In this document: positions 22,147-39,887 of the stretch, piece after piece
How positions within the stretch are numbered: position 1 is the first letter of the stretch
Layout of the letters: each line of letters starts with the position of its first letter
DNA from: Bacteriovorax stolpii
GTDB taxonomy: Bacteria; Bdellovibrionota; UBA1018
Assembly (NCBI GenBank): GCA_945860415.1
Contig: CAMAQA010000002.1
Coordinates: 10,193-74,192 of the forward strand
Length of the DNA stretch: 64,000 nucleotides
Reading direction: 5' to 3'
Position numbers and translations under genes: made by a program
Notes under the pieces: model-generated
The model's database searches: none
Told to the model about the DNA's origin: nothing
Seen by the model: only the letters and a program-made list of their open reading frames with translations

Positions 22147-22187
22147 AGCCACCCATTAATGCAATAGCGTTGCATTAATGGGTGGCT
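22147..22187. promoter_or_regulatory. 41-bp perfect palindrome containing candidate Zur-type box A
   Basis: AGCCACCCATTAATGCAA-tagcg-TTGCATTAATGGGTGGCT: 18-nt perfect arms. It is centred in the 82-bp gap between the divergent CDF and COG0523 genes. Confidence 0.6.
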
Positions 22188-22207
22188 TGCGTTAGTCGCG
22201 GTGGTCC

Positions 22208-23419
22208 ATGAAAGATCAGTCTGCGTCAGGGCGCCCATTGCCGGTCACGGTGCTGTCGGGATTTCTCGGTGCTGGAAAAACCACCCTTCTCAATCAGGTG
22301 CTGACGAATCGAGCCGGCATGCGCGTGGCCGTCATCGTCAACGACATGAGCGAGGTCAATATCGACGCCGCCCAGATCAAGGGTGGCTCGGCCATGCTGT
22401 CGCGTCAGGAAGAGCGGCTGGTGGAAATGCAGAACGGCTGCATCTGCTGCACGCTTCGAGAAGACCTTCTGATCGAGGTTGCGAAACTCGCAGAAGAGGG
22501 ACGCTTTGACTACCTCCTGATCGAGTCAACCGGCATCTCGGAGCCTCTTCCTGTGGCCGAAACCTTTCAGTTCGCTGACCCCGCCGGCAGGGTGCTCAAT
22601 GATCTGGCCCGGCTTGACACCATGGTGACCGTCGTGGATGGGCCAAGGTTCCTCAAGGACTACAACGAGGGGGCTTTGCTCCGAGAGCGGAAACTTGCCG
22701 TGGACGAAAAGGATTCGAGAACCATTACCGACCTGTTGGTGGAGCAGGTGGAGTTCGCCAACGTGATCGTGATCAACAAGACGGATCTCATGGGCGGCAT
22801 GCGCATTCGAGAGCTCGAGGGAATTTTGAAGGCTCTCAATCCCGAAGCGACCATCCTCCGAACCAGCTTCGGGCGGATACCGTTGCCCTCCATTCTGGGT
22901 ACCGGACTTTTTGATTTTTCGCGAGCCTCGCTTGCGCCGGGTTGGATGAGGCGCATGCGGGGTGAGCCGTTGAGTGAGGCCGAGGAATACGGAATTTCGA
23001 GCTTTGTTTTTCGTGACCGCCGGCCTTTTCATCCGCAGCGTTGGGCGGATCTCTGTAGTCGGATCTGGCCGGGTGTTCTGCGCTCGAAGGGTTTCATCTA
23101 TTTGGCCTCGCGGCTGGAGCACATCGCCCTGTGGTCGCAGGCGGGCACGGTCTGGTCACTGGGGCCTGCGGGCGCCTGGAGGGCCGCCATTCCGGAAGAG
23201 GCCTGGCCGGATGACGAGTCCACGCGGGCTGCGATCAAGCGCGACTGGCACCCGATTTTCGGAGACCGCCGACAGGAACTCGTCGTGATCGGGGGGCGCG
23301 AGATGAGGCCGGAGCGGATCAGGAGCGATCTTGAACGGGCACTGCTGACGGAAGACGAGGTTGCGCTCGGCCGGTCGCGATGGAAGGGGTTTTCGGATCC
23401 TTTTCCTAAATGGATCTGA
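22208..23419 (+). CDS. COG0523-family GTPase (CobW/ZigA/YeiR-like metallochaperone), copy 1
   Basis: Walker [13 protein letters not shown], metal motif [16 protein letters not shown], and a CobW_C-like tail (RPFHPQR…RSKGF). Confidence 0.9.
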   Translation: MKDQSASGRPLPVTVLSGFLGAGKTTLLNQVLTNRAGMRVAVIVNDMSEVNIDAAQIKGGSAMLSRQEERLVEMQNGCICCTLREDLLIEVAKLAEEGRFDYLLIESTGISEPLPVAETFQFADPAGRVLNDLARLDTMVTVVDGPRFLKDYNEGALLRERKLAVDEKDSRTITDLLVEQVEFANVIVINKTDLMGGMRIRELEGILKALNPEATILRTSFGRIPLPSILGTGLFDFSRASLAPGWMRRMRGEPLSEAEEYGISSFVFRDRRPFHPQRWADLCSRIWPGVLRSKGFIYLASRLEHIALWSQAGTVWSLGPAGAWRAAIPEEAWPDDESTRAAIKRDWHPIFGDRRQELVVIGGREMRPERIRSDLERALLTEDEVALGRSRWKGFSDPFPKWI

Positions 23420-23437
23420 TTCGTTTTTAGTTGTCAT

Positions 23438-23458
23438 TATTGCATTTCAGTTGCAATA
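23438..23458. promoter_or_regulatory. candidate Zur-type box B
   Basis: tatTGCATttcagTTGCAata, 39 nt upstream of the S18 ATG. Confidence 0.5.
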
Positions 23459-23493
23459 AATGGCACCTGTTCGGACGTGATCAAAAGGAGTCA

Positions 23494-23811
23494 ATGATGG
23501 GTAGATTGAATGTGGGTTCTACAGGGGGTCGTGTGGAGCGTGGCGACTGGGAGGACAAGAGTGAGGAACGGCGTAGCGCGCCCCGCATGCGACGCTTTCG
23601 CGCGCCTCCGGATCTGATTTTCGATTACAAGGATGTCGAATCTCTCAAGCCTTTCCTGTCGGAGAGCGGAAAGATTGTTCCGGCGCGGATCAGCCGCCTG
23701 AGCGCCTCCCAACAGCGCAAGCTGACCCAGGAAGTCAAGCGGGCCCGCCAGCTGGCGTTGCTGCCCATCAGTGATCGTCACTCGGGTGGGTCCGGCGGAA
23801 GTCGCTTCTGA
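23494..23811 (+). CDS. rpsR: ribosomal protein S18, cysteine-free variant with atypical N- and C-terminal extensions
   Basis: Core [50 protein letters not shown] matches S18. RBS AAGGAG at 23485-23490. ATG at 23494 or 23497. Confidence 0.8.
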
Positions 23812-24862
23812 GATCAGCCGGGAGCTCCCAGAGTGCGAGCTCTCCGGTGTCGAATCCCACGGCGATCGAGTTTCCAGAGGGATGCCAGGCCATGCATGTG
23901 GCCTGGCTCTCTGCTGCCGAAGTGCCGATGACCATGGGTCGAAGCGCGATGGAGTCCAGGCTCCAGAGCATCCAGCAGCCGTCCGTGCCGATAGTGGCAA
24001 ACTGTCGTGGTGATGCTGGTCTGAACCCGATGTCGACAATGGTCCCGATATGGCCGCCAATCACACGCGGCTGCTGGCCGGCGGGGGTCGCTCGGGTGAA
24101 GTCCCATGACGTGATGGCTTCGCCTCCAGCGGCCAGAAGCTGCGAGCCATCCGGGCTCCACCGCAGCGCTCTGACCTGCCCAGGAAATCCCGACATTCGG
24201 AAGTCATTTCCGGACGAGGTTCGCCAGACGTGCAGCGTCTGGTCTCGGCACCCCGAGGCAATCCACCGTCCGTCTGGACTTACCGACAGTTGAAGCGGAC
24301 TGCCATTCCAGTTGAAGGTTCTCGCGGGCCGCGACGAACCTTGTTTCCAGATCTGAAGTTCAAGGTGAGAAACCGAGATAAAGCTGTCCTGTATGTCACG
24401 CCACTGCAGATCGCAGATGGCGGCGCGCGCGCCCTCGAAGCGACTGACTTCGGTGCCTTCGAGTGAACACCAGGTGATGATCCTGCCGGCTGCGGAAAGA
24501 AACCCACTGCCATCATGCGCCGGGCGGAGCAGCTCCGCGGCGGCCAGGCCCGAAAGCGATGAGCACCACTGAAGGCGGATTTCTCCATCTTCGATGCGCC
24601 AGCAGCGGAGTTCTCCCTTTTTGCTTCCGCGTCCGGATGAAATCACCAGCCCATCACATCCCAGCCATCGGACATCGGTCAGTTCAGTCGCATGCGCAAT
24701 CGTACGCGTGAGCGTCGCGCCGCCATTGAGGTGGACGATTCCGATTCCTCCGGCTGTTTCTCCGATCAGTAGATGGGTGCCGTCCTCACTCCAGTGCAGA
24801 TGGCGAATATAGTCTCCATACTCGATGGAACGGAGTGGATCGATCAAGCGGAGGTCAGACAT
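23768..24862 (-). CDS. WD40-repeat beta-propeller protein, cytoplasmic
   Basis: Repeats such as [20 protein letters not shown] and [13 protein letters not shown]. No signal peptide. The start overlaps the upstream COG0523 stop by 19 nt. Confidence 0.8.
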
Positions 24863-26217
24863 GCACGAAAGCCCTCGTTCAATTCGGCTCGATCCAGGTT
24901 TCTTCCGATGAATACCAGTTGATTGGTCCTCTCTTCGTGATCAAGCCAATCGACCTCCGGGAGACTCTCCACGATCATGTGTACTCCATGAAACACGACT
25001 TTAGAGCTGGATCCGCCCTCGGTGGGTTCTACGTTTAGAACCCCCTTCATTCGGAAGAGATCGGCTCCCCGACTTCTAACCAGATTCGAGATCCAGAAGT
25101 TGAAGATGGGTCTCGAGACGATTCCGGATACCGCGATTCCAACGGACGATACGGTGCTGTCGTGCTCATGGCCCGGGTTGAACTCATGAGAGTCCTCGGG
25201 CTCAAGAGTCGTCCCGGAAGATGTATGAAGCTGCATTTGAAACTCGGACGGATGATGTTGCAGGAAGAGCGTGTATCTGCCGTCTGCAGGAATCTCGAGG
25301 AGGAACTCCTTGGGGCCATTCTTGGAGAGCTCGAGGCTGAAGTGGCAGGGTGACGGAATCAGGGTGGACCCAGGCGCCATGGCGATGGGCTCGTCGGAGA
25401 ATAAGATCATGGCCCGCTCGCGCAGTTTGAGTACCTCGCTGTTCGTCAGCTCGGTCTGGGCGAGAATCGCGATCGATAGCGCCGGGTCTGGCCCCTCTTC
25501 AAGACGAAGAGCATGCACGCCAGCGGGCAGCGCGTAAGATCCGGACCACTCAAACGGATACTCCGGATCGAGGAATGCGGGACGAGTTCGAAGCGCTCGT
25601 TGAAGGTCGAATCCGCCCACGTCGATGACGTTTTGGATCGGGATATTGCATTGAGTGGTTCGCAGGATCCGGGCTGCGCCATTGATCGCCCGTATCCGGC
25701 CTTCGAGCGCAGGAAGGTCGGACTCCGCTACCAGATCCACTTTGTTCAGCAGGATGAGGTCGGCGAAGGCGATCTGTTCCTGGCACTCGTCTGAATCCTC
25801 GATATGCAGTGACAGATGTCTCGAGTCCACGACGGTGACCACGCCGTCGACCTGGTAGGTGGCTTTCATCTCATCGTCGGCCAGGAAGGTCTGAACGACC
25901 GGAGCTGGATCGGCAAGCCCGGTGGTCTCGATGATGATTCGGTCGAATTTGTCCCGCCTCTGAAGGAGGCGTCCCAGGATGCGAATCAGGTCGCCGCGAA
26001 CGGTGCAGCAGATGCATCCGTTGTTCATTTCATGGATCTCTTCCTCGGATGACAGGATTAGTCCGCTGTCGATGCCGATCTCTCCGAACTCGTTTTCGAT
26101 GATGGCGATTCTTTGACCGTGATGCTCGGCGAGGATTCTGTTGAGCAGGGTGGTCTTTCCGGACCCCAGAAACCCGGTCAAGATGGTCAATGGAATTCGA
26201 CTCGTATTTTCACTCAT
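24844..26217 (-). CDS. COG0523-family GTPase, copy 2, with a large insertion between the G-domain and CobW_C
   Basis: GFLGSGKTTLLN, GCICCTVRGDL and NKVDL motifs. About 130 extra residues (…EWSGSYALPAGVHALRLEEGPD… HEFNPGHEHDS) precede the CobW_C-like end. Confidence 0.85.
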   Translation of the reverse strand: MSENTSRIPLTILTGFLGSGKTTLLNRILAEHHGQRIAIIENEFGEIGIDSGLILSSEEEIHEMNNGCICCTVRGDLIRILGRLLQRRDKFDRIIIETTGLADPAPVVQTFLADDEMKATYQVDGVVTVVDSRHLSLHIEDSDECQEQIAFADLILLNKVDLVAESDLPALEGRIRAINGAARILRTTQCNIPIQNVIDVGGFDLQRALRTRPAFLDPEYPFEWSGSYALPAGVHALRLEEGPDPALSIAILAQTELTNSEVLKLRERAMILFSDEPIAMAPGSTLIPSPCHFSLELSKNGPKEFLLEIPADGRYTLFLQHHPSEFQMQLHTSSGTTLEPEDSHEFNPGHEHDSTVSSVGIAVSGIVSRPIFNFWISNLVRSRGADLFRMKGVLNVEPTEGGSSSKVVFHGVHMIVESLPEVDWLDHEERTNQLVFIGRNLDRAELNEGFRACLTSA

Positions 26218-26235
26218 GGTTTGGCTCTCCGTGGA

Positions 26236-27528
26236 TCAGGTGGAATTAAAACGGTGAAATGGCATCGGTAGACGGGGTTGCAGGATACTTCGGGTATCAG
26301 GCTCCGAAAGCGAGAGCAGTCTGGGTTTCGGGCCAAGGACCAGCGCGCGCCGGACTCGGGAAGGAATGGCCTCCGGATCGTGGGTGCACCACACGACGGA
26401 GAGGGCGCGAGACGCCTGGGTGGCCTCGAGTCGACGCACAAGCAGTCCGGCCGTCTCGGCATCGAGGCCTGAAGTCAGTTCATCGCAGAGAAGAATCTCG
26501 GGGCCTGCCGCGATTGCAGAAATCAGCATGGCCTGCTTCTGCTGACCGAAACTGAGTCCTGACAGGGGCTGATGCATTTCAGCTTGGAGCTCAAACGATT
26601 CAAACAGGTTCTCCAGCTCGCCTTCGCTGATTCGAGATCCAATTCGGGCATCCTCCCAGGGAGTGGCGCCGAGAAGGAAGTGTTCGGGATTCTGAAAAGT
26701 CATCATGATCCCGCGAATGCAGCCGCGGAGAGATTCAGTGCCCAGTCGCTTCAGGGTTCCCGAGCTCGGAGGCCGAAGTCCGGCCATCACTCGAAGAAGT
26801 GTGGTTTTCCCAGATCCGCTTGGCCCGAGAAGGGCGAGCCATTCGCCCTGTTGGAGCTCAAGATGGATCTCCGAAAATACTTCCTTTCCGAGAATCTCCA
26901 CGGCGATCCGATCCAGCTCCATCACCAGATCGGGTCTCGATCTGAACTCCATCGGATTCGTCGGGCCGGTCGTACGAAGAGCGCGAGACTCTCTGGCCGT
27001 TTCCGCCCGTCGAAGGCCATAGTCCAGAGTGGAGGCAAGAAGAAGCGAAGTGCACGCATGGGGCGCAGAACTCGGCGCACGAAGCCGAATCGCCGAGAGC
27101 CGGGAGGGGAATGCCTCAACCATGATGGCGCTTCCGGTACAGATGTCCTGAATCAGTTCGTGAAGCCAGGGAGCACTCGACACCCTCCTGACCAGGCGCT
27201 CGGCTCCATCCCGGGTGATGATTCCGGAGATCGCACCCATGAACCCTAATCCGGCGAGCCAGCGATACAGTGTGCCTGGGGCGATCCCTCTGCCGCTGAG
27301 CCAGCTGCCGAGCCAGCTGATCATCGCAATGCCGAACGAAAGTGCTAGAAACAGGTAAGGGGTGCTCGAGTGGCGCTTCGCGGAGCTCGACCCATGACGA
27401 TACGTCCAGGAGGCAGCGAAGAGAAGAAGCGCGATCAGCGGCACGAAGGGGGTGATGTCGTCCGCCGAGAGCGCGGCCAACAGGAGAATACCCGAGGCCG
27501 CGGCAGTGAGAATCATGCCTCGGATCAT
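26236..27528 (-). CDS. fused ECF transporter T-component-like membrane domain plus A-component ATPase (CbiQ/CbiO-like)
   Basis: An N-terminal region of about 190 aa is hydrophobic. It is followed by Walker A GPSGSGKTT, signature LSFGQQKQ and Walker B ILLCDE. The ATG at 27528 overlaps the upstream ORF stop (ATGA). Confidence 0.7.
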   Translation of the reverse strand: MIRGMILTAAASGILLLAALSADDITPFVPLIALLLFAASWTYRHGSSSAKRHSSTPYLFLALSFGIAMISWLGSWLSGRGIAPGTLYRWLAGLGFMGAISGIITRDGAERLVRRVSSAPWLHELIQDICTGSAIMVEAFPSRLSAIRLRAPSSAPHACTSLLLASTLDYGLRRAETARESRALRTTGPTNPMEFRSRPDLVMELDRIAVEILGKEVFSEIHLELQQGEWLALLGPSGSGKTTLLRVMAGLRPPSSGTLKRLGTESLRGCIRGIMMTFQNPEHFLLGATPWEDARIGSRISEGELENLFESFELQAEMHQPLSGLSFGQQKQAMLISAIAAGPEILLCDELTSGLDAETAGLLVRRLEATQASRALSVVWCTHDPEAIPSRVRRALVLGPKPRLLSLSEPDTRSILQPRLPMPFHRFNST

Positions 27529-27695
27529 GGGACGCGTGCGCCCCGTGACATCAGGCGTGACCACCCCGCACCCATCAGAACGCCACAGAGCAACAGGAGC
27601 AGTCCGAAAACAAATGGCGACTCATCGCTCGGAGCGGCCGTTCCGCCCACGATCTCGGGTAGTATTCCGGCGAGTCGGGCGTGATGGTCGAACAC
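27525..27695 (-). CDS. small membrane protein, CbiN-like C-terminal half
   Basis: …APSDESPFVFGLLLLLCGVLMGAGW resembles the PSGE-plus-TM end of CbiN. A GTG at 27695 lies 4 nt after the cbiM stop. The stop overlaps the next ATG. Confidence 0.4.
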   Translation of the reverse strand: MFDHHARLAGILPEIVGGTAAPSDESPFVFGLLLLLCGVLMGAGWSRLMSRGARVP

Positions 27696-27699
27696 CGCC

Positions 27700-28263
27700 T
27701 CATCCAGGCCCGTGTAGCTGAGTGACAGCCGGGGTGTCTGGCGAGGAGGATTGAAATGCGATGGCGAGAACTGCAGCATCTGCGACGTAGACAGCCATGC
27801 TGGAAACTGCCAATGCGGTAGCGATCCCCCAGAGAGTCCTTCGACCGGGTCGAAGGAAAGTGGCGACAGTGCGGCTCAGGAAAAAGGCGAGCCCCGGACC
27901 GATCACTCCAAGCGTGAGGATATTTGCCCCCAGGCTGGTCAGCCCGCCGTGCCCCATTCCCACTGCCTGAATGGCAAGGATCAATGCGACGGGCAGGATG
28001 ACGTGCAGGGGGCCCACCAGAAGGGCAAGTAAACCCGTCATGCACAGGTGCGAACTGATTCCGAAGAGCGGCATAGGAATCGGAAGCACCGTGCAGGCGA
28101 AGACCAGTGCCGATCCTACCGTGAGAAGGTTTCTGAACGAAGGATCGCCGGTCGTCGTCAGGGTGTGCTTCATCCGGATCGAGCCCAGGAGAACGGCGGG
28201 TGCCGCCAGCGAGGTCAGCGCCAGGGCATGTGCGGCAGGCAGGATTCCCTCGGAAATGTGCAT
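27700..28263 (-). CDS. cbiM: ECF transporter substrate-capture component, CbiM/NikM family
   Basis: Hallmark N-terminus MHISEGIL and a conserved internal His (GISSHLCMTG). Polytopic. Short for the family at 187 aa. Confidence 0.8.
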   Translation of the reverse strand: MHISEGILPAAHALALTSLAAPAVLLGSIRMKHTLTTTGDPSFRNLLTVGSALVFACTVLPIPMPLFGISSHLCMTGLLALLVGPLHVILPVALILAIQAVGMGHGGLTSLGANILTLGVIGPGLAFFLSRTVATFLRPGRRTLWGIATALAVSSMAVYVADAAVLAIAFQSSSPDTPAVTQLHGPG

Positions 28264-28281: not shown

Positions 28282-28452
28282 CTATTTTTTGGAGCTGCTC
28301 GGGCTCTTGCCTTCGACAAAGAGGACGTGCTTTCGAACCTTGGGGTCATATTTCTTCTTCTGCAGCTTGTCGGTCGTCTTCTGCTTGTTTTTGGTCGTGT
28401 AGTAGCAAAAGCCGGTTCCTGCGGTTGACACCAGACGAACTTTCTCTCTCAT
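28282..28452 (-). CDS. rpmG: ribosomal protein L33, non-zinc-ribbon (C-) form. 56 aa, absent from the supplied ORF track
   Basis: Manual translation gives [56 protein letters not shown]. This matches the L33 pattern (xRLVSxAGTGxxYxTxKNK…KYDPxVRKHV). Confidence 0.85.
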
Positions 28453-28470: not shown

Positions 28471-28491
28471 TATCGCAATTCAGTTGCGTTA
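28471..28491. promoter_or_regulatory. candidate Zur-type box C
   Basis: tatCGCAAttcagTTGCGtta, 22 nt upstream of the rpmG ATG (minus strand). Confidence 0.5.
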
Positions 28492-28513: not shown

Positions 28514-28741
28514 TCAATGGGCATTTTTTGAATCGTTCAGTGCGCGTTTGAACCATTCCAGGACTCGAGAGTAGTGGGCCTCGCCATAGAGTTCTCGAAA
28601 TCGCCTTGTGTCCTGCAAGGCAGTGCTCTGGAGCAGTCGGACCCTGGCCTGCAGGTAGTCGCGAGTCAGGGGTATTCCGCACTTGAGGGTGATGCACTCC
28701 TTCCATTCTTCGAACGATGTCGGAAGTTCAGTCTTTTTCAT
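28514..28741 (-). CDS. hypothetical protein (75 aa)
   Basis: The ATG overlaps the upstream stop (ATGA at 28738-28741). Helical and charged. No known motif. Confidence 0.45.
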   Translation of the reverse strand: MKKTELPTSFEEWKECITLKCGIPLTRDYLQARVRLLQSTALQDTRRFRELYGEAHYSRVLEWFKRALNDSKNAH

Positions 28742-29322
28742 GATTTCCTCGGGTTTAGGTTACGCCACATTTGCGACCCATCGATCGGTCGGACCATTGG
28801 CCTGAGTTCGAGGTCACGCCAGAAATGGCGCAGGTTGATCGCTCGTCGCAGTGAGGTGGGCCGATGACGATTGTGGAACTTTTCTTCGATCCACCGTTCG
28901 TAGTGCTCCATCCATCCAATGAACCGAGCAAAGGTTGGAAGGGCGCTTTGATACTCGGCGGCGGAGGGCGCGGCCGCCAGCTCTGGACTCTTGAGAAGAC
29001 ACCACGGATCCTGGAGGTCCAGACCACGGGCAAAGCGCGGCCTGGGTCGGTGGCGCGACCAGAACCAGAGGCCTTGTCCAGGGACGTGCAGGGTGATGCC
29101 AAACGCCCAGAGACAAACGTCAAAACCGAGCTGTGGGCGACGATCATCCACGTAAGCGGCAGAGCTGGACCATTCGACCTGCTTTTCGAGTTTCCTCAAT
29201 CCAAAGAGGAGTAAGAGATCGGCTTCGGGCGCTTTGATGTCGTGGCCCCAGAGGCAAAACTGATGGTCCCAGTTTCTCAGTCGGTCAGCGTTTGAGAGGG
29301 TGGAAGTGGCCAGAGGGTCCAA
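28738..29322 (-). CDS. hypothetical Trp-rich protein (194 aa)
   Basis: ORF directly downstream of box D. No signal peptide and no known motif. Confidence 0.5.
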   Translation of the reverse strand: MDPLATSTLSNADRLRNWDHQFCLWGHDIKAPEADLLLLFGLRKLEKQVEWSSSAAYVDDRRPQLGFDVCLWAFGITLHVPGQGLWFWSRHRPRPRFARGLDLQDPWCLLKSPELAAAPSAAEYQSALPTFARFIGWMEHYERWIEEKFHNRHRPTSLRRAINLRHFWRDLELRPMVRPIDGSQMWRNLNPRKS

Positions 29323-29341: not shown

Positions 29342-29362
29342 AGATGCAACTCAGTTGCAATA
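29342..29362. promoter_or_regulatory. candidate Zur-type box D
   Basis: agaTGCAActcagTTGCAata, 23 nt upstream of ATG 29322 (minus strand). Confidence 0.55.
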
Positions 29363-29376: not shown

Positions 29377-29754
29377 TCAGTTGCGCGGTGGACTACAGCC
29401 CGTCAGTTTTCCATGGCTCCATTCCAGGAGCCAGGGCGTCGTCGCCACGGCCTTGTCGAGCTCAGTGGCTTGCTCGGGTGCGCGAAAGGCGCGCAGATTG
29501 CGGGGAAGCCTGGCACGATCACGCAAGATTTCGCCGGTTTCTCCTCGAACGTAAATAACGACCGGGGGAGCCGTTGTTCCTACGGCGAGCTGCTCGATCA
29601 AGTCATGGCAGCCCTGACAGCGAGGGCTTGCGAGAACGACTTGAACCTTCGGACCAGTTGCATCGAGGAAGGGACGAAGTCGCGAATCATCGATTGATTC
29701 CAGCGATCGAGGCAGCAGCGCGAGGATCGCAAGGCAGGGAGCCAGGGCACTCAC
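29377..29754 (-). CDS. exported thioredoxin-fold-like protein with a CxxC motif
   Basis: Hydrophobic N-terminus. VVLASPRCQGCHDLIEQL shows the beta-strand, CxxC, helix pattern. The start overlaps the TBDR stop. Confidence 0.45.
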   Translation of the reverse strand: MSALAPCLAILALLPRSLESIDDSRLRPFLDATGPKVQVVLASPRCQGCHDLIEQLAVGTTAPPVVIYVRGETGEILRDRARLPRNLRAFRAPEQATELDKAVATTPWLLEWSHGKLTGCSPPRN

Positions 29755-31928: not shown

Positions 31929-31932
31929 GGAA

Positions 31933-32640: not shown

Positions 32641-33844
32641 TTGTCGGTTCTCCGGTGTGGTGCCCTACGGAATGCAGGGACTTGAAATGGGGTTTTCGGG
32701 TGCGCCGCTTTTCAGAGCGCTCCCACTCTTTTTCGCGTTCTTCGCGGAAAGGATCGCGAAAGCGGCTCCAGTCGAGGTGCATCTCGAAGTCGCTGAGCAG
32801 GCACCGGTCGAGCTCACGAAAAAACGCTTCCGATCGCATCCGCCTCGACACATGAGAATCCCAAGCGAAAGCCAGCTCAGTCATCCGATCTCCGGTTTCA
32901 GGATTCCAGTGTTCGAAGGCCTCGGGGTGATCCTCACGAGCCTGGCGAAGCTCGTCGGCGGGAAGCGTTGCCAGCCAGTATCCATCTCCCGAGCAGTCAA
33001 AGAGCCGAGGGCCTGCCTGCGTGATGGTAAAAGCGACATCGGTCTCCGAGGCGATCCAGGCGGTGCCTTCGCTGCGCAGCAGCTCCTCGGGCCAGCGGCG
33101 CACGAGCTGATAGAACCGTTCGGGGTGAAAGGGACGATTCCTGCGAAAGACCTGCCCGGGCTGGGCGTGCTTCGAGAACTGAAGCCCGAGCCGCCAGACC
33201 GCTCCGTTGGCTGTTCGCTCTGCTGAAAATTCGCGGGAGATCAGCTGGCGGGCCCATTCCGAAGTGATGTCAGACCGCTCCAGAATTTCGGCGCGAGTAT
33301 TCAAGCTCCTCAGGAATTCGGCTGAGGCATGCTTCTCGTGTTCCGTACCCGAAAGGACGAGAGCATCCGAGAAGTCGATCTGGTCGGCGATGGCTTCGAC
33401 CAAGGGTACCTGGCGGTCAAGTCCGATTCGTCGGGTCGAGACCCAGTCGAGAAGAAGCTTGTCAGTGCCAATGGCTGAGACGAACGATCGAATTCGGAAT
33501 CCAGCCTGGTGAAGCGGTTGATCCGCGCCAAAGGCGTCGACAATGGCCCACGGGTCGGCGTCGATCGGGGTCACGAGCCAGATTGCGCTCTCGAGCGGGC
33601 TACTCTGAGCCATCGGAAGCAGCCGGTCTTCGATCGCTTGCCGAACAGAACAGGACGAGCAATCGGAAGTCTCTTTCGAGGGGGTCGTGACTAAGGCGCC
33701 ACCGGAAAGAGTGGCCAGCAGTCGTGCGAGCGAATTGCCTTCTCGTACACGGACACTTTGAACGACGACGACCGAACGCTCGGAGGGAGCAGTGCGCCGC
33801 GATTTCGCAGCCAGGCGTTCGGCAAGTGAGATGATCTCAGCCAT
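32612..33844 (-). CDS. COG0523 paralog with degenerate GTPase motifs (copy 4)
   Basis: The C-terminal half aligns by eye to copy 3 ([11 protein letters not shown]…, [10 protein letters not shown]…DPF). Walker A is replaced by [15 protein letters not shown] by CSSCS, and NKTD by LSGTE. Confidence 0.7.
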
Positions 33845-35075
33845 GGGTCACCGATTCTCCATCTGCCGTCGTGGGGTTCTGCCAGGACGGAAACGGATCG
33901 TTTGCTTTCAGCCATTGCTCCTTGCCGAGGGCGAGCTCCGAGTCGCTGAGCAGGCAGGAGTCGAGCTTGCTCCTGAGCTCGTCATGATGGCGAGAGCCTT
34001 CGAGCGTGATGATCACGAGCTCCTGCTGGCGATCGCCGAACTGCTCATCCCAGATCGACTGGATGCGAGTCAGTTCTTCTTCGTCCATGTCCCAGTCCTC
34101 GGGAGGCTGGGCGGCGTACCACTCTCCGCCGCTCTCGACCGAACTGACGAGTCCGGCCTGCGACCAGACGCCCACTTCCGAAGGACGCGTGGCGATCCAG
34201 AAAAAGCCCTTCGAGCGAATCACGCTCTTCCAGCCTTCCTGAAAGAGCTGAAACAGGCGCTCTGGGTGAAAGGGCCGCTTGGCCCGATAAACAAAGCTCG
34301 AGATACCGTACTCTTCGGTCTCGGGCTTTTCTTCTCCGCGAAGAATCTTCAGCCATCCCGCCGATTCGGAGGCTTTTTCGAAGTTGAACAGCCCGGTCTT
34401 CAGCACCGTTGCGGGCGCCACCTGACCGTAGCGGCTCTCGATGAGGCGGGCTCCGGGGTTCAGCTTCTTGAGCACTCCCTTGAGGGTGTCCAGCTCGGCA
34501 GCTGAAACCAGATCGGTCTTGTTGAGCACGAGGATATCTGCAAACTCGACCTGTTCCACCAGCAGGTCGGTGATCGTGCGCTCGTCTTCGTCTCCTGCCT
34601 CGAGTCCGCGGGCCCTGAGCTCGTCGGACTGCTGGTAGTCATTCAGGAAGTTGAGCGCGTCGATGACGGTCACCATCGTGTCGAGGCGGGCCAGCTGCGA
34701 GAGCGACACCCCGTTCTCATCCTCGAAGGTGAAGGTTTCAGCCACGGGCAGCGGCTCGGAGATTCCGGTCGATTCAATCAGCAGGGCATCGAATCTCCCC
34801 TCGCGAGCCAGTCGAGCCACCTCGACGAGCAGGTCTTCGCGAAGCGTGCAGCAGATGCAGCCGTTCTGCATTTCGACGAGCTTCTCTTCAGTGCGGCTCA
34901 GGGAGGCTTCGCCACCCTTGACCAGGGCTGCGTCGATGTTCACCGAGCTCATGTCATTGACGATCACCGCCACGCGCATGCCGTCGCGATTTCGAAGCAC
35001 ATGGTTCAGGAGCGTGGTCTTTCCGGCTCCGAGGAATCCGGAAAGAACCGTGACGGGAAGCTGCGAGGACTGCAT
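33837..35075 (-). CDS. COG0523-family GTPase, copy 3
   Basis: [28 protein letters not shown] and a CobW_C-like tail. Confidence 0.9.
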
Positions 35076-35101: not shown

Positions 35102-35389
35102 TTAGTTTTTTCGGCCCTTCGCGACCAGTCGTGCCTTGATGGTGCGGAGACGATCCGAGAGGTTCGCATCCTTGGCAAGCTTGATGGCCCGGCTGATTCC
35201 TCCCTGCTTGTCGATCGTGCGGATGGCACGAGTCGACAGGCGAAGTGACAGGATCTGGCCGAGCTCCGGAATGGAGTAGCGCTTGCTGACGATGTTGGGC
35301 AGCCAGCGCGTGCGGGTCTTGATGTTCGAGTAGCTGACGAGGTTGCCGGTCGTCGGGCCCTTGCCGGTGAGTTCGCAGAACTTAGACAT
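35102..35389 (-). CDS. rpmB: ribosomal protein L28 (no CxxC pair)
   Basis: [33 protein letters not shown] matches the L28 N-terminus. The start is set at ATG 35389. Confidence 0.85.
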
Positions 35390-35708
35390 AAACTTCTCCG
35401 CTTTTCTTGGCGATTCGCACTTTCTTGCCGTCAAGGATCTTCGTGCCGAGCCGAGTGGGCTTGCCGGTTTTCGGGTCTACTGCCATGACATTCGAAATGT
35501 GAATGGGCGCCTCCTTGGCCACAATTCCGCCCTGGGGGTTGGCCTGCGAGGCGCGGACGTGTCGTTTGACCTGGTTCAGACCTTCCAGAATCACCGACTC
35601 TCGCTTGAGCTGCATGGCGATGATGCGAGCCTGCTTGCCTTTTTCTTTTCCGGAGATGACTTCGACCAGGTCGCCTTTGCGGAGCAAACTTCTGATTTGC
35701 GTTTTCAT
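35382..35708 (-). CDS. rplX: ribosomal protein L24
   Basis: [19 protein letters not shown] (KOW motif), …[15 protein letters not shown]… and DGKKVR align to bacterial L24. The start is set at ATG 35708. Confidence 0.85.
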
Positions 35709-35718: not shown

Positions 35719-35961
35719 TTACTTCGTGTACTTCTTGCGGAAGCGTTCAATGCGGCCCTGAGTGTCGAGCAGCTTTTCCTTTCCGGTGAAGAAGGGGTGC
35801 GACGCGCTCGAGATTTCAACCTTCACGACGGGATACTCCTTGCCGTCCTCCCAGATCATGGTTTCCTTGGGCTGGGCGGTCGAACGGGTCAGGAAGGCAA
35901 AATCGGACGATACGTCCTTATAGATGACTTCGCGGTATTCGGGGTGGGTGGCCTGCTTCAT
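35719..35961 (-). CDS. rpmE2: ribosomal protein L31 type B (non-zinc form)
   Basis: [12 protein letters not shown]…[14 protein letters not shown]…RFRKKY is the type B signature. No Cys. Confidence 0.9.
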
Positions 35962-35975
35962 GGTGTTCTCCGGTC

Positions 35976-35996
35976 ATTTGCAATTTTGTTGCGTGT
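35976..35996. promoter_or_regulatory. candidate Zur-type box E1
   Basis: attTGCAAttttgTTGCGtgt, 18 nt upstream of the rpmE2 ATG. Confidence 0.5.
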
Positions 35997-35998
35997 AG

Positions 35999-36019
35999 TA
36001 GTGCAACTCTGATGCATTT
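35999..36019. promoter_or_regulatory. candidate Zur-type box E2
   Basis: tagTGCAActctgATGCAttt. Its centre is 23 bp from that of E1, and it lies 69 nt upstream of the Fur-family gene. Confidence 0.45.
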
Positions 36020-36084
36020 GTCAAATTCTTCCGGCATGTGACGGCCCCGTTCCCTCCCGAGGGCATCTGCTGTAGGGTCATTCC

Positions 36085-36582
36085 ATGAGCAAGGAAGGAC
36101 AGTCTCGCGGGGTGCGCCGTGTGCAAGTTCGCAAGAATACAGGGACAGTTCATGGTCGGCATGAGGCCGAGCTCTCATCGGCCCTTGAGGCCATCGAGCG
36201 AGCGGGCATGCGCCGTACCCAGCCTCGAATCGCGATCTTGAAGGCATTGATTGCCGAGCACGGACCTTTCAGTGTCGACGAGCTTCGTGAGTTCTCTCTT
36301 CTTGATGGAGTCGATCGGGTGACCGTTTACCGAGTCTTGACGGCATTTGAAGAGCTGGGCCTGGTGCGCCGGTGTGAGTTCGGCGACGGCACCTCGCGCT
36401 ACGAGTTCGCGGGTGGTGGCCACCACCACCATCACGTCATCTGCAAAAAATGCCGCAAAACGGAAAACGTCGACGAGTGCATTCCTGACGCGATCATCCA
36501 GCGCGTTCGCAAGCTGGGCTACGACGACGTCTCGCACACCCTCGAGTTTTTCGGGGTGTGCAAGACCTGTCGTGCGGCTTGA
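36085..36582 (+). CDS. zur: Fur-family metalloregulator, probably Zur
   Basis: Winged-helix motifs RRTQPRIAILKAL and RVTVYRVL, a His-run (HHHHH), and two CxxC pairs (CKKC, CKTC). The Zur assignment comes from context only. Confidence 0.75.
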   Translation: MSKEGQSRGVRRVQVRKNTGTVHGRHEAELSSALEAIERAGMRRTQPRIAILKALIAEHGPFSVDELREFSLLDGVDRVTVYRVLTAFEELGLVRRCEFGDGTSRYEFAGGGHHHHHVICKKCRKTENVDECIPDAIIQRVRKLGYDDVSHTLEFFGVCKTCRAA

Positions 36583-36630
36583 TTGAGATCCTGTTCGTGT
36601 ACCAGTCGGCAGTGAGTTGCCGTTTGGGAT

Positions 36631-36660
36631 TCTCAATCGGCAATATGTTGCCGATTGAGA
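36631..36660. repeat. 30-bp inverted repeat (13-nt perfect arms, 4-nt spacer)
   Basis: TCTCAATCGGCAA-tatg-TTGCCGATTGAGA. A weaker CGGCA-n6-TGCCG sits at 36607-36622. Either a zur terminator hairpin or an operator. Confidence 0.5.
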
Positions 36661-36682
36661 CAATGTCGGATACTCTCTCTGG

Positions 36683-37816
36683 ATGAAGCGTTATGAGCGC
36701 AGGCTCGATCTCAAAAAGCTCCTCGCCAAGAACTCCTTGTTCCTTTTTGGCCCTAGGGGGGTTGGAAAGAGCTTTCTGATTCGTGAGACGCTTCTTGGAC
36801 TCAAGACCTACAATCTTCTGGATGATGAGGTTTTCGACAAGCTGATGCGTCGTCCGAAAGCTATCGAGGAGGAGCTGGCATCTGGCACTCGTACTGTGGT
36901 CATCGACGAGATCCAGAAGCTTCCCAAGCTTCTGGATGAAGTGCATCGACTCATCGAGGAGCGAGGAATTCGATTTCTCCTCACCGGAAGTTCGGCGCGC
37001 AAGCTGAGGCGAGGGGGGGCTAATCTCCTTGCTGGCAGAGCGTGGGAGAGCCATCTCTATCCATTGATTCGAAACGAGATCGATCAGTTCAGCCTAGATC
37101 GCTATTTGAACGTGGGGGGGTTGCCTCGGGTCTACCTTTCTGACGAACCACGCGAGGAACTCAAAGCATACGTTCGCACCTACCTGATGGAGGAAATCAA
37201 GGCCGAGGCGCTCGTTCGTTCTTATGAGCGGTTTGTTCGCTTTTTCGAGGCCATCGCCCAGTCGAATGGAAAAGAGATCAACTATCAGAACCTATCGAAG
37301 GATTCGGGGGTTCCAGTGCGGACCATTGAAGGCTACATCGAGGTGCTTCGGGATACATTGGTCGGTTTTGAGCTCCTGCCCTTCACCAAAACGGTGACTC
37401 GGAAAGCTGTGAGCCGCTCGAAGTTTTACCTCTTTGATGTGGGGGTGGCGAATTACCTCAAGGGCCTTGAGAAAATCGTTCCTGCAAGCAGTGACTTCGG
37501 CGATGCGTTCGAGCACTTCATCATTACCGAGGTCCGGGCCTACAGCTCTTATTCGAGACGAGACCTGAAGTTACAGTACTGGCGCTCGAAGGATCGTGAA
37601 GTGGACCTGATCTTTGGTTCTTCAGCGATCGAAATCAAGAGCACGGAGCGGATACGTGACGAGGACTTCAAGGGGCTCAAGGCCCTGCGCCAGGAGAAGC
37701 TCCTCAAAAACTATTTTCTCGTGAGCCGCAGCAAAAACGAGGGAGTGACCGACAATATCCGTTATCTTCACTACGAGACCTTCCTCGCCGAGCTCTGGGC
37801 GGGAAAGGTCTCGTAG
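36683..37816 (+). CDS. AAA+ ATPase (AAA_14 plus DUF4143 architecture)
   Basis: Walker A GPRGVGKSF and Walker B VVIDEIQK. The C-terminal DUF4143-like region is assigned from memory of the family. Confidence 0.75.
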   Translation: MKRYERRLDLKKLLAKNSLFLFGPRGVGKSFLIRETLLGLKTYNLLDDEVFDKLMRRPKAIEEELASGTRTVVIDEIQKLPKLLDEVHRLIEERGIRFLLTGSSARKLRRGGANLLAGRAWESHLYPLIRNEIDQFSLDRYLNVGGLPRVYLSDEPREELKAYVRTYLMEEIKAEALVRSYERFVRFFEAIAQSNGKEINYQNLSKDSGVPVRTIEGYIEVLRDTLVGFELLPFTKTVTRKAVSRSKFYLFDVGVANYLKGLEKIVPASSDFGDAFEHFIITEVRAYSSYSRRDLKLQYWRSKDREVDLIFGSSAIEIKSTERIRDEDFKGLKALRQEKLLKNYFLVSRSKNEGVTDNIRYLHYETFLAELWAGKVS

Positions 37817-37863
37817 CCATGGTCTGTTTGAAAAGTGCGGCTGTCGCGCGGCTCGAGCTGGGA

Positions 37864-39837
37864 TCAGAGCCGGGCCTGAACTCCGACGATGAAGTTCCTG
37901 CCCGGAAGCGGTGCCACGTCCTTCACGAACGAGACATGGTTTCGCGCTTCGACGTTGAATGCGTTGTTGAGGCGTGCCGTCAATCTCAGGGCTCCAAATC
38001 CGGTGGTTACCGGCATCTCGGCTCCGACGTTCAGCATCGTGTAGGCAGGCGTCTTCTGCTCGTTGGTCGCGAGCTGGGTCTGGGCCTCGGAGCGCTGGAT
38101 TTCGATGTCCGCTGCGATCGAGTTGCTGCGATAATTCAGCCCCACCGTTTCACGCACCGGAGTCACGCGTGGCAGGAACGTCTTATCGGAGCGGTTGAAG
38201 CCGCGCACCAGGTCGAGGCGCGTTTCGAGTTCCCAGATGCCGTTCCAGAGATTCCAGGGAAGCTGCTCGCGAAGCTCGAACTCGGCGCCATAGAGGGCGG
38301 CTGAGATTGGGCGGAACTCGTATTCCGCGAAGCCACTGTCGCCGTCGGTCTGGCCATTCGGAATGAGACCAATGAACCGGGTGAAGTTCTGCGCGAAGAG
38401 CGTCGCACGACCTTCGCTCTTGCCGACCTGCCTTCGAAGCGAGAACTCTACTGAGCGGCCGATCTCACGCTTCAGATCGGCATTGCCGATTTCGTACGTG
38501 CTGGTGGCCATATGCGCACCGAGCGCGAAGAGCTCCTGGTAATTCGGGGCACGCTCGGTGAACGAGGTGTTCAGTCCCAGGCTGTAGACCTCATTCAGGC
38601 GATACAGCGTTCCGAGCGACAGGCTGGGCGTGATGAAGCTTCGCGCAGCCGCAGCTCCGAATGCGGCCCCGCCCTGTGAATTCACGCGCGAGTATTCGCC
38701 TCGGAGTCCGAAGTTGTGGGTCCAGCTGCCGATCGGCAGTTCTTCGAAGGCGAACAGCGCGCCCTGGACATTTTCGGTCGTCGGAAGAAAAGCTTCTTCT
38801 CCTGAAGCACTCAGCCGAAACGCCAGCGTTTGCAGGCCGACGATGCCTTGGACGGCACCCCAGGGACGATGGCGAAGATCTGCGCGGATTTCTCCGCCCG
38901 AGTTGCGAAAAACCGTTCCTTCTTCGGCACCCCCGCCGCCCCCGTCGTCGTGGCCTTCTTCGGTGTGCTTGTAATACGAGAGGGCGCCGGCGACCCGCCC
39001 CGACTCCACCCAGCCGCCGGTCTTGAATTCACCCGAAAAGTCGATGCGCTGGCGATTGAGTTCAATGACGACGTCTTCCTCTTTCACGACTCCGTAGTGT
39101 GTTCCGAAGCTCGAGAACGAGGTGCCCCAGTAGCCGTTCTCGGTGATCCGACTGATACCCAGCGCACCCTCGAGGGTTTCGGCTTCGCTGTTGGTGACCG
39201 TGCGGACCGGGGTGCGGTAGTCTTCCGAAGCGCGCAGGATGCCGTCGAAATGGTATGCCCATTCGCCGACGCTGTGGTTGACGAGAAGCCCGAGGGTGCG
39301 GCCCGAATCAACCGTGGAGTAACGCGAGTCGAACTTGATCTTCGAGTCGTACTGAAGGCGGGTCGGAATCCGCGAGCTGACCGTATTGACCACGCCACCG
39401 ATGGCGCTCGATCCGTAAAGAAGGGCTCCTGAGCCGCGAATGACCTCGACACGGTCGACCAGAAGCGGGTCTCCGGCCACGGCATGATCGGCGCTGGTGC
39501 CGGAGGCATCGAGCGTGCCGAGGCCGCCCTGGAGCACGCGAATGCGGTCGCCATCGAGCGCACGAATGATCGGTCGGCTCGAGCCGGGCCCGAACTGAGT
39601 CGAAGTCACGCCGGTTTCGCGAGAGAGCGTCTCGCCCAGGGTCTGAGCGCGCTTTTTGTCGAGCTTGCGTCCGGAAAGCTCGCTGATGGTCGGCACAAAG
39701 TCTTGAACGGATTTCTTCTCAGTGCCGGAGATTCCGAGCACGGTGATCTCGGGAATCTCGAGCTCATCGGGTTCTGCGGCAACCAGCAGCGAGCTGGCGA
39801 GAAGGGTCGGGGCCATCAGGGCAAGTGTCTTTTTCAT
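37864..39837 (-). CDS. TonB-dependent receptor 2 (ZnuD-like candidate)
   Basis: Signal peptide from ATG 39837, a plug domain and a beta-barrel ending …FIVGVQARL. Contains a His/Asp/Gly-rich segment, HTEEGHDDGGGGGAEEG. Confidence 0.85.
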   Translation of the reverse strand: MKKTLALMAPTLLASSLLVAAEPDELEIPEITVLGISGTEKKSVQDFVPTISELSGRKLDKKRAQTLGETLSRETGVTSTQFGPGSSRPIIRALDGDRIRVLQGGLGTLDASGTSADHAVAGDPLLVDRVEVIRGSGALLYGSSAIGGVVNTVSSRIPTRLQYDSKIKFDSRYSTVDSGRTLGLLVNHSVGEWAYHFDGILRASEDYRTPVRTVTNSEAETLEGALGISRITENGYWGTSFSSFGTHYGVVKEEDVVIELNRQRIDFSGEFKTGGWVESGRVAGALSYYKHTEEGHDDGGGGGAEEGTVFRNSGGEIRADLRHRPWGAVQGIVGLQTLAFRLSASGEEAFLPTTENVQGALFAFEELPIGSWTHNFGLRGEYSRVNSQGGAAFGAAAARSFITPSLSLGTLYRLNEVYSLGLNTSFTERAPNYQELFALGAHMATSTYEIGNADLKREIGRSVEFSLRRQVGKSEGRATLFAQNFTRFIGLIPNGQTDGDSGFAEYEFRPISAALYGAEFELREQLPWNLWNGIWELETRLDLVRGFNRSDKTFLPRVTPVRETVGLNYRSNSIAADIEIQRSEAQTQLATNEQKTPAYTMLNVGAEMPVTTGFGALRLTARLNNAFNVEARNHVSFVKDVAPLPGRNFIVGVQARL

Positions 39838-39866
39838 GGAGAGGAAAGCTATCGAGGAGGTTTCTT

Positions 39867-39887
39867 TAATGCAACTATTTTGCACTG
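39867..39887. promoter_or_regulatory. candidate Zur-type box F
   Basis: taaTGCAActattTTGCActg, 33 nt upstream of the TBDR-2 ATG, in the divergent gap. Confidence 0.5.

Follow-up and report, generated by a model that had tools for sequence, protein, structure and literature searches.

Seven intergenic copies of a conserved palindrome

Which protein reads the palindrome TGCAA-N5-TTGCA that recurs upstream of genes in this uncultured, predatory-type bacterium of a 60% GC Bdellovibrionota lineage, and to which signal does it respond? An initial annotation, made by eye, had quoted seven copies and read them as candidate Zur operators. All seven 21-mers were found exactly as quoted; positions are those of the window, meaning the whole 64-kb stretch of DNA that was analysed.

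22157-22177: operator A, TAATGCAATAGCGTTGCATTA, between the diverging CDF and COG0523_A genes
23438-23458: operator B, 18 nt after the COG0523_A stop codon and 35 nt upstream of an S18 homologue
28471-28491: operator C, 18 nt upstream of an L33 homologue heading a CbiM-ABC-COG0523-WD40 operon
29342-29362: operator D, 19 nt before a 194-aa gene that starts with TTG; a conserved 75-aa gene comes next
35976-35996: operator E1, weakest of the seven, 14 nt ahead of an L31 type B gene
35999-36019: operator E2, 65 nt upstream of a Fur-family gene
39867-39887: operator F, 29 nt upstream of a ZnuD-like TonB receptor gene

Operator A is the core of a perfect 37-nt palindrome (22149-22185), and its ends lie 30 nt from the start of COG0523_A and 4 nt from the GTG of the CDF gene. 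The centres of E1 and E2 are 23 bp apart, and a divergent gene for a secreted protein lies 137 nt from operator F. The spacing of 18 to 69 nt to a start codon that had been given for the sites was roughly right, the measured distances being 14 to 65 nt, plus the 4 nt to the CDF GTG.

Scanning the window for TGCAA-N5-TTGCA with at most one mismatch gave 6 matches versus 1.41 expected, all located at 22 to 40 kb, a count reached in 0 of 100 shuffles. At two mismatches the bare pattern was not enriched in the window (19 matches versus 20.8 expected), so it is the wider 21-bp matrix, and not the bare pattern, that supports site C. When each site was left out of the matrix in turn, all seven ranked first among the ~63,850 untrained window positions, scoring 12.2 to 27.3 (E1 being the weakest) versus 6 to 9.3 for the next-best positions. 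The eye scan had left room for additional copies; the full matrix gave 19.5 to 30.6 for the seven sites and only 5.5 for the next position in the window, indicating that the window has no others. All seven sites were non-coding and no intragenic copy was present in the window. Non-coding gaps account for 7.4% of the region from 18663 to 42693, and the probability that all sites would be intergenic by chance is about 1e-8.

The consensus of 24 sites from the window and related genomes is TAwTGCAACtnaGTTGCAwTA, in which G and C never vary at positions +/-6 and +/-5. Sharing among the seven sites is limited to the 21-bp core, their flanks being unrelated. The operators have the form expected for the Fur family, an AT-flanked inverted repeat of ~15 to 21 bp; Fur-family operators are known as 7-1-7 sites, which the repeat described here fits.

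Genes behind the candidate operators

The genes and transcription units behind the seven sites are as follows.

21475-22152, minus strand: CDF (cation diffusion facilitator) transporter lacking the C-terminal cytoplasmic domain, transcribed divergently from COG0523_A
22208-23811, plus strand: COG0523_A (ZigA-like; 586 bits, slightly below the cut-off of 600), then the S18 homologue
23494-23811, plus strand: S18 homologue, 0 Cys, after operator B
23768-28263, minus strand: CbiM-ABC-COG0523-WD40 transporter cassette, with the next five features
23768-24862, minus strand: WD40 protein
24844-26217, minus strand: COG0523_B
26236-27564, minus strand: membrane domain fused to an ABC ATPase of ECF/CbiO-like type
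27525-27779, minus strand: possible CbiN-like ORF
27700-28263, minus strand: CbiM-like S component (Pfam CbiM, E = 3.9e-30)
28282-28452, minus strand: L33 homologue, 56 aa, 1 Cys, heading the operon behind operator C
28514-29322, minus strand: unknown 194-aa protein and conserved 75-aa protein, behind operator D
29377-32364, minus strand: distal part of the same-strand unit as the E1 operon (secreted 143-aa protein, TonB receptor 1, unknown 125-aa protein)
29751-31928, minus strand: TonB receptor 1, within this distal part
32612-33844, minus strand: COG0523-derived protein with a CobW_C domain only
33837-35075, minus strand: COG0523_C, zinc metallochaperone GTPase of ZigA type (618 bits; NCBIfam cut-off, 600)
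35102-35389, minus strand: L28 homologue, Cys-poor
35382-35708, minus strand: L24 (rplX-type) homologue, 0 Cys, between the L31 type B and L28 homologues
35719-35961, minus strand: L31 type B homologue without Cys, heading the E1/E2 operon (NF002462, 129 bits)
36085-36582, plus strand: Fur-family regulator, proposed Zur, adjoining E1/E2
37864-39837, minus strand: TonB receptor 2, whose best NCBIfam match is the zinc-piracy receptor ZnuD

Two parts of the initial gene picture had to be replaced. The 313-aa ORF drawn to the left of site A gave way to the CDF transporter, and the gene that follows site C is the L33 homologue, which falls below the usual ORF cut-off. The L31 type B, L28, L33, and S18 homologues contain 0 or 1 Cys each and are taken to be second copies. 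Zinc uptake, zinc sparing, and COG0523 genes, the content expected of a Zur regulon, are all represented behind the sites. No znuABC was found among the annotated genes (~16 to 45 kb), nor was there an extra site anywhere in the window that might mark it.

A Fur-family gene adjoins the tandem sites

The protein encoded next to E1 and E2 matches the Pfam FUR domain (E = 7.9e-22) and carries both CxxC pairs and an HHHHH run; the true start of its gene may lie further downstream. Its closest solved relative is M. tuberculosis Zur/FurB (2o03), relative to which the Cys4 site and the equivalents of His80/81/82/83 and His118 are kept, while the regulatory-site ligands Asp62 and Cys76 align with Arg and Ala. 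The curated Zur equivalog NF008646, an E. coli-type model, gave 27.9 bits versus a cut-off of 167, and the Fur and PerR models of NCBIfam scored higher than the Zur model, all below their cut-offs. Five Fur-family proteins encoded beside exact boxes in other phyla likewise reached no Fur-family equivalog. Curated models cannot assign the metal of the regulator.

The regulator gene has its own site, E2, an arrangement found in eight other genomes as well. A TTGACA hexamer (36019-36024, minus strand) abuts E2, and its TTGAC core was invariant in five genomes. A consensus promoter scan detected no sigma-70-type promoter, and conservation supports only the -35 element at E2.

The box in other genomes

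The check in related genomes proposed with the initial annotation bore out its reading, since the box adjoins the orthologous regulator and precedes zinc genes elsewhere. It lies beside the regulator orthologue in L001, L002, L004, L005, L010, L016, L035, and L059, and accompanies a Fur-family gene in at least eight genomes, the regulators being 40 to 92% identical to that of the window. Where boxes occur in tandem in other genomes, they are always 23 bp apart. In an intergenic alignment of five genomes, most invariant columns fell in the two operators and the TTGAC beside them, a few more lying downstream, and the flanks diverged around the conserved core.

Sites are also kept before orthologous genes, namely, those for TonB receptor 2 (L006 and L014) and the CDF transporter (L004). 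Elsewhere, the box is found upstream of DUF3299-ZrgA-ABC-FtsX (L011), a gene for a ZIP transporter (L016), an ABC-3 (ZnuB-type) operon beside zur (L010), and exbB-exbD-tonB-zur with a TonB receptor (L007). The CbiM-ABC-COG0523-WD40 cassette recurs on an unrelated contig of 46% GC, with a strong box (scoring 28.3, versus 4.8 for the next best) ~80 nt upstream of it, and the gene for the 75-aa protein adjoins the same box in three other phyla; this protein would be a further, uncharacterised member of the regulon.

Among the matches listed for the exact D. vulgaris 17-mer, a COG0523 homologue was present in 22 of 120 8-kb blocks, from many phyla, with the 17-mer 31 to 227 bp upstream in 11 of these 22, and a Fur-family gene was present in more than 16 of the 120. 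In Bacteroidota, Betaproteobacteria, and Myxococcota, COG0523 and Fur-family genes have the exact 17-mer upstream, and the box is not confined to Desulfovibrio.

These comparisons also bear on whether the box could serve a Fur-family regulator whose signal is iron, cobalt/nickel, manganese, or peroxide instead of zinc. The higher Fur and PerR scores of the regulator, TonB receptors of a kind typical of iron regulons, and a cobalt flavour lent by the CobW family, CbiM, and a weak B12-receptor (BtuB-like) match (67 bits versus a cut-off of 600) would suit such a regulator. However, the hallmarks of a zinc regulon include Cys-poor ribosomal homologues, L31 type B, and ZigA-type COG0523, relatives carry the box upstream of the zinc-uptake genes ZrgA, ZIP, and ABC-3, and siderophore, haem, ferrous-iron, and peroxide-defence genes are absent behind all sites. 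A cobalamin riboswitch was not found either, an Rfam gathering search of the whole window returning only three tRNAs. We thus give a signal other than zinc little probability.

We consider it improbable as well that a regulator of another family binds the palindrome and that the Fur-family gene is merely one of its targets. One metagenome-assembled genome does carry a second, 77% identical copy of the regulator with no box nearby, but the box keeps company with the regulator gene in the genomes listed above and with more distant Fur-family genes in other phyla, its AT-flanked inverted repeat is of the Fur-family kind, and no other regulator gene is present within the island. Still less probable is a dispersed repeat or RNA hairpin (REP-like element or terminator) without regulatory role since, although the copies are palindromic and the 37-nt hairpin at site A is perfect (-25.6 kcal/mol), sites B to F fold weakly (-2.3 to -5.6 kcal/mol) and have no T-run, no site is among the terminator-like matches, all lie 5' of genes and not at the 3' gene ends where such elements belong, and the core is kept at orthologous positions between flanks that are unrelated or diverge.

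Comparison with known zinc regulons

The Desulfovibrio palindrome to which the initial annotation had likened the sites is correct: Rodionov et al. (2004) predicted the Zur box ATGCAACnnnGTTGCAT and placed it, as ATGCAACNNNGTTGCAT, before znuABC-zur in both D. vulgaris and D. desulfuricans, with one predicted site per genome (PMC545781). Over the 14 specified positions of ATGCAACnnnGTTGCAT, the mismatches number 1 (A), 4 (B), 4 (C), 1 (D), 3 (E1), 2 (E2), and 2 (F). The palindrome, the proposed regulator family, and the proposed signal are those of Desulfovibrio. In contrast, the window has seven sites, none of them before a znuABC-zur operon, and its zur is a single gene pointing away from the L31 type B ribosomal-protein operon. 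Nor does the host belong to Desulfovibrio, and no Desulfovibrio protein was among the best 80 relatives of the regulator.

The gene content also recalls that of the Zur regulons of Bacillus, Streptomyces, and Mycobacterium, with which the window shares zinc-free ribosomal paralogues, COG0523 genes, and a predicted autoregulation. The Zur box of those bacteria is of the TCGTAAT-N-ATTACGA type and differs from that of the window, whose ribosomal-protein operon moreover includes an L24 copy. L24 is a ribosomal protein without a zinc ribbon, and we did not find an L24 copy in a Zur regulon in the literature on Zur. According to the account of Panina et al. (2003) given in PMC545781, Zur boxes in the three genera precede copies of L31, L33, L28, and S18 that lack zinc ribbons.

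The window also resembles the Acinetobacter/Neisseria-type set, as COG0523_C reaches the ZigA equivalog cut-off, COG0523_A falls just under it, and ZnuD is the best match of TonB receptor 2. However, the ZnuD score (243 bits) is well below the cut-off of 950, the box and the host phylum differ, and the island has four COG0523-type genes, two of them ZigA-like and one without the GTPase domain.

In gene order, the cassette recalls the clusters of COG0523 subfamily 5 with WD40 genes, some members of which have Zur sites upstream (Haas et al. 2009, PMC2770081): in both, a WD40 beta-propeller gene comes after a COG0523 gene and a Zur site is predicted upstream. The window links this pair to an S component of CbiM type and to an ABC ATPase that has its own membrane domain, a combination seen also in two other lineages and not mentioned by Haas et al. 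(2009). With CbiMNQO/NikMNQO importers, the cassette shares two features of the metal-binding S component, MHISEG at the N terminus and the histidine of SSHL, and an ECF/CbiO-like ATPase follows. Nevertheless, it scores far below the cobalt and nickel equivalog cut-offs, its ATPase-fused membrane domain matches no CbiQ model, and it is preceded by a Zur-type box in a window that lacks a B12 riboswitch.

A predicted zinc-starvation circuit

Four independent lines strongly support the reading as candidate Zur operators: a Fur-family gene adjoins E1/E2, the genes behind the sites are the classic zinc-starvation set, other genomes pair the box with regulator orthologues and zinc genes, and the Desulfovibrio consensus is real. 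As judged from sequence, the seven palindromes are thus very probably operators of a zinc-sensing Fur-family repressor, Zur, encoded at 36085-36582. We infer zinc as the signal, repression as the mode, and this protein as the one that binds, zinc-dependent binding being suggested by gene content.

Under zinc-replete conditions, a zinc-loaded repressor dimer would occupy each inverted repeat and, being bound 14 to 65 nt ahead of a start codon, would stand in the way of RNA polymerase. The ribosomal-protein operon would carry two dimers, 23 bp apart, located between and just after the conserved TTGAC(A) -35 element. A drop in zinc would release the repressor and turn on ~20 genes in six or seven transcription units, encoding zinc-free substitutes for L31 (type B), L28, L33, and S18 plus the L24 copy, COG0523 zinc metallochaperones, two TonB-dependent outer-membrane receptors, the CbiM-type inner-membrane importer cassette, and the repressor itself, which would hence be autoregulated. 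The CDF gene might be repressed or activated; CDF proteins are usually exporters and an odd target for a repressor of uptake genes. The circuit is of a textbook kind, unusually large (an 18-kb block), with a few unexpected members.

More tentatively, the zinc-starvation response may exceed what is known of such responses by including a swap to an alternative L24 and zinc import by a CbiMNQO-like ECF transporter with a dedicated COG0523 GTPase and WD40 protein. The four-gene cassette is found in unrelated genomes as well, with the same box upstream. If true, the L24 swap would make ribosome remodelling broader than simple zinc sparing.

Taken together, the seven operators and ~20 genes provide a near-complete, testable map of zinc starvation for a high-GC Bdellovibrionota lineage that has not been cultured. 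The box, until now predicted for Desulfovibrio only, is seen with COG0523 and Fur-family genes in several phyla, and it should help annotators call Zur regulons where curated models cannot separate Zur from Fur and PerR. The map also brings forward three unstudied candidates for zinc biology: the L24 homologue, the CbiM-type cassette with COG0523 and WD40 proteins, and the small conserved protein.

Sequence context of the seven palindromes

The initial annotation had described seven 21-bp palindromes of the TGCAA-N5-TTGCA type between 22157 and 39887 (sites A, B, C, D, E1, E2 and F, here called the box) as candidate operators of Zur, the zinc-sensing Fur-family repressor, and the sequence at these sites reads letter for letter as it was given there. 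Searching the window for TGCAA-N5-TTGCA with at most one mismatch returned six matches, compared to 1.41 expected, and none of 100 shuffles reached six; all of these matches lie within 22-40 kb. With up to two mismatches, the window gave 19 matches versus 20.8 expected, that is, no excess over chance, and the short core by itself therefore constitutes weak evidence. The signal is carried by the 21-bp context of the sites. When each site was left out in turn and scored with a matrix made from the other six, it ranked first among about 63,854 untrained positions, with scores of 12.2 to 27.3, whereas the runner-up positions reached 6 to 9.3. Scanning the window with the full position matrix gave 19.5 to 30.6 for the seven sites and only 5.5 for the next position, and this gap indicates that there are no additional copies in the window, which the reading by eye had been unable to exclude. 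On a coding/non-coding map of 18663-42693 made from Pfam and NCBIfam matches, all seven sites fell in non-coding DNA, which represents 7.4% of this interval (P about 1e-8).

Two weak matrix matches, 22425-22445 and 34853-34873, lie inside two paralogous COG0523 genes and were treated as coding coincidences rather than as extra sites. Both read ATGCAG-N7-CTGCAT and occupy similar places in the two ZigA-like paralogues, about 200-220 nt into each gene; they probably arise from a conserved peptide. Matrix matches in ribosomal operons of low-GC Bacilli were likewise set aside, being located about 1.1 kb downstream of rplX and probably part of the coding sequence of a conserved operon; they call for caution in applying the matrix to AT-rich genomes. 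Readings of the sites as hairpins, terminators or riboswitches were rejected.

Genes adjoining the sites

The 18-kb interval from site A to site F forms a single dense block of metal-related genes, in which COG0523 denotes the GTPase family including the zinc metallochaperone ZigA and CobW.

Genes at the seven predicted operators
21475-22152, minus strand: CDF transporter, on one side of site A
22208-23419: ZigA-like COG0523 GTPase, on the other side of site A
23494-23811: S18 homologue, downstream of site B
28282-28452: 56-aa L33 homologue, downstream of site C
23768-28263, minus strand: four-gene cassette following the L33 homologue (CbiM-like S component, ABC ATPase fused to its own membrane domain, COG0523 protein, WD40 protein)
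28514-29322: two unknown genes, downstream of site D
35719-35961, minus strand: L31 type B, first gene of the E1/E2 minus-strand unit, then an L24 homologue and an L28 homologue
Middle of the same unit: ZigA-type COG0523 protein (618 bits, cut-off 600), then a COG0523 relative without GTPase domain
End of the same unit: small secreted protein, TonB receptor and one more unknown gene
36085-36582, plus strand: Fur-family regulator gene (putative zur, below zur), downstream of E1/E2, which occupy the divergent gap between it and the L31 type B gene
Downstream of site F: TonB receptor, with the zinc-piracy receptor ZnuD as best match

Counted in the translations, the L31 type B, L28, L33, S18 and L24 homologues contain 0 or 1 cysteine each and are thus unable to form zinc ribbons. 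These homologues are presumed to be second copies; the window does not contain the canonical ribosomal operons. Names such as CobW, CbiM and BtuB-like could also be read in terms of cobalt or B12, but Rfam detected no riboswitch in the whole window, which argues against this account. The only Rfam matches in the window were three tRNA genes, at 2402-2483 (plus), 3583-3656 (plus) and 15359-15431 (minus).

A 313-aa ORF (21215-22156) to the left of site A was rejected as a gene. Its translation looks out-of-frame and has no family match, and we replaced it by the CDF frame, which has an orthologue in L004 (5403-6105; L001 to L282 denote loci or contigs from other genomes), there preceded by a tandem pair of boxes. 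The window CDF protein has no C-terminal cytoplasmic domain, and its gene starts 4 nt from site A. CDF transporters are usually exporters; a Zur box in front of such a gene suggests either activation or a non-export role. Site A itself is the middle of a perfect 37-nt palindrome (22149-22185, CCACCCAT-TAATGCAAT-AGC-GTTGCATTA-ATGGGTGG; -25.6 kcal/mol and z = -8.4 as RNA), far longer than the other six sites, and the additional arms put ATG on both strands.

The COG0523 relative lacking the GTPase domain (32612-33844, minus; 410 aa) retains only the CobW_C part, overlaps the preceding ZigA-type gene by 8 nt and is kept in L002, L004 and L005. Between zur and the ZnuD-like receptor, a DUF4143/AAA_14 ATPase gene (36683-37816, plus) is inserted in a GC dip (0.55). 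In L001 and L002, zur adjoins the receptor with no ATPase gene between them, and L002 carries a 91% identical copy of the ATPase gene at another place in its zinc island; this gene appears to be mobile.

The Fur-family regulator

The regulator contains a FUR domain, and its best solved relative is Zur of M. tuberculosis (FurB, 2o03). Compared to 2o03, the structural Cys4 site is kept, as are the residues matching His80, His81, His82, His83 and His118, and Glu101 is replaced by Asp. Two residues of the regulatory site in the mycobacterial protein, Asp62 and Cys76, are not kept, aligning with Arg and Ala. All NCBIfam equivalogs scored under their cut-offs, with the Fur and PerR models above the Zur model, so the metal cannot be named from the regulator sequence alone; close homologues bear no database name more specific than "Fur family". 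The zinc assignment rests on regulon content.

The closest relatives of the regulator come from MAGs labelled Bdellovibrionia and Bacteriovorax (92% and 90% identity), followed by Oligoflexia, then Verrucomicrobiota (about 50%) and Bdellovibrio (about 45%); Desulfovibrio was absent from the best 80. For several further proteins of the island, identity to the L001 and L002 counterparts is 85 to 97%. Together, these relatives assign the window to a 60% GC Bdellovibrionota lineage. As a caveat, one MAG harbors two regulator copies, L004 3913-4323 (72% identical to that of the window), within a zinc island with four boxes, and L003 9992-10450 (77%), which lacks a box and adjoins an integrase and a globin-like gene. 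The second copy could be a mobile duplicate or reflect a mixed bin.

The box in related genomes

The box adjoins the regulator gene in L001, L002, L004, L005, L010, L016, L035 and L059. A constant spacing of 23 bp separates the centres of paired boxes, seen in E1/E2 of the window, in L001, in two L004 pairs and in L005. In relatives, the box additionally lies upstream of further genes tied to zinc, as follows.

Box-preceded genes in other genomes
L011: DUF3299-ZrgA-ABC-FtsX
L016: ZIP transporter
L010: ABC-3 (ZnuB-type) operon
L007: exbB-exbD-tonB-zur and a TonB receptor
L006 and L014: orthologues of the ZnuD-like receptor behind site F

Since box-preceded zinc-uptake families in these relatives are absent from the window, zinc as the signal gains independent support.

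Alignment of the gap between L31 type B and zur from five genomes showed that the invariant columns fall mostly in the two operators and in GTCAA right after E2, with few others downstream. On the minus strand this motif reads TTGAC and may represent the -35 element of the ribosomal-protein operon, in which case the promoter spacer would contain E2, and E1 would lie around the start of transcription. A promoter scan found no sigma-70 consensus promoter within 22-40.2 kb, and a separate search for hexamers yielded nothing beyond weak candidates; a single promoter element, the TTGACA beside E2, is backed by conservation.

Wider distribution of the box

The Desulfovibrio Zur consensus named in the initial annotation proved to be real: for D. 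vulgaris and D. desulfuricans, Rodionov et al. (2004) predicted the 17-bp palindrome ATGCAACNNNGTTGCAT upstream of znuABC-zur (PMC545781), and no other paper naming the box was found in the searchable open literature. Of the 14 positions that this consensus specifies, 1 to 4 are mismatched in the window sites.

Searching the exact D. vulgaris 17-mer over 185,579 species genomes returned at least 120 matches, each retrieved with an 8-kb block. Among the 120 matches listed, none came from Desulfovibrio; the hosts included Bacteroidota, Betaproteobacteria (Methylophilaceae, Sulfuritalea, Rhodocyclaceae), Myxococcota and Ignavibacteria. A COG0523 homologue was present in 22 of these 120 blocks, with the 17-mer 31 to 227 bp upstream of the gene in 11 of the 22, and a Fur-family gene was present in more than 16 of the 120, often right beside the site. 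In a Polyangium block from the same list, the exact site precedes an L33-COG0523 pair. Genomes carry only a few COG0523 genes, and the occurrence of one in 18% of the listed blocks is therefore far above chance. On the strength of this association, the box is predicted to be a widespread Zur-type operator and not a peculiarity of Desulfovibrio.

Unexpected members of the predicted regulon

The L24 homologue (35382-35708, minus) is full-length and of the rplX type (115 bits versus a cut-off of 53.7). In the box-preceded operon, its gene follows the L31 type B homologue and precedes the L28 homologue, whose start it overlaps by 8 nt; it is found at the same operon position in four relatives (L001 410-727, L002 9297-9614, L004 2935-3264 and L005 2644-2970). 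Outside the clade, its nearest relatives are L24 proteins of Bacillota (62 to 64% identity). L24 is a ribosomal protein without a zinc ribbon, and our literature search found no paper tying an L24 paralogue to Zur. On another Bdellovibrionota contig, L209, S18 and L24 genes form a pair outside the usual ribosomal operon (2758-3303), with no box in the region upstream.

The CbiM-ABC-COG0523-WD40 cassette also occurs in unrelated genomes of two other lineages (L281 5899-10692 and L282 974-5202). On L281, a contig of 46% GC, a box lies upstream of the cassette and scores 28.3, the next best position scoring 4.8. The cassette may encode an energy-coupling-factor-type importer of zinc. Haas et al. 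(2009) already described the COG0523-WD40 pairing and its tie to Zur sites; the link to CbiM is absent from their account (PMC2770081). The window CbiM ORF (27700-28263, minus) encodes 187 aa, versus 306 to 312 aa in the closest homologues. The C-terminal part that it lacks is similar to an 84-aa ORF which overlaps it in a different frame (27525-27779, minus; DEAVFDHHARLAG versus DEAVLAHVAAQAG), which points to a split or frameshifted gene or to an assembly error.

A homologue search with the 75-aa protein (28514-28741, minus) returned three proteins only. Homologues in Methylophilaceae, Aureispira and Sphingobacteriaceae (L090 3307-3483, L138 6432-6611 and L150 563-757) adjoin an exact ATGCAACAGTGTTGCAT box or a COG0523 gene. 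They share the pattern W..CI...C.I.LT ... YG..HL...I.WF. with it. Even when the threshold was permissive, neither this protein nor the other unknown proteins of the island matched any family of Pfam or NCBIfam.

Discussion

The candidate Zur operator of the initial annotation is well supported by site statistics, by regulon content and by the occurrence of the box with zinc genes in relatives, and we consider it very probable that the seven palindromes are Zur operators. Zinc-loaded repressor dimers would occlude the promoters, and zinc starvation would lead to their release. This mechanism is an ordinary one, a type of circuit already known. What distinguishes the predicted regulon is its size, with seven operators, four COG0523-type genes and, in addition to an L24 copy, four cysteine-poor homologues of ribosomal proteins, together with its host lineage and its three unexpected members, namely, the L24 homologue, the CbiM cassette and the 75-aa protein.
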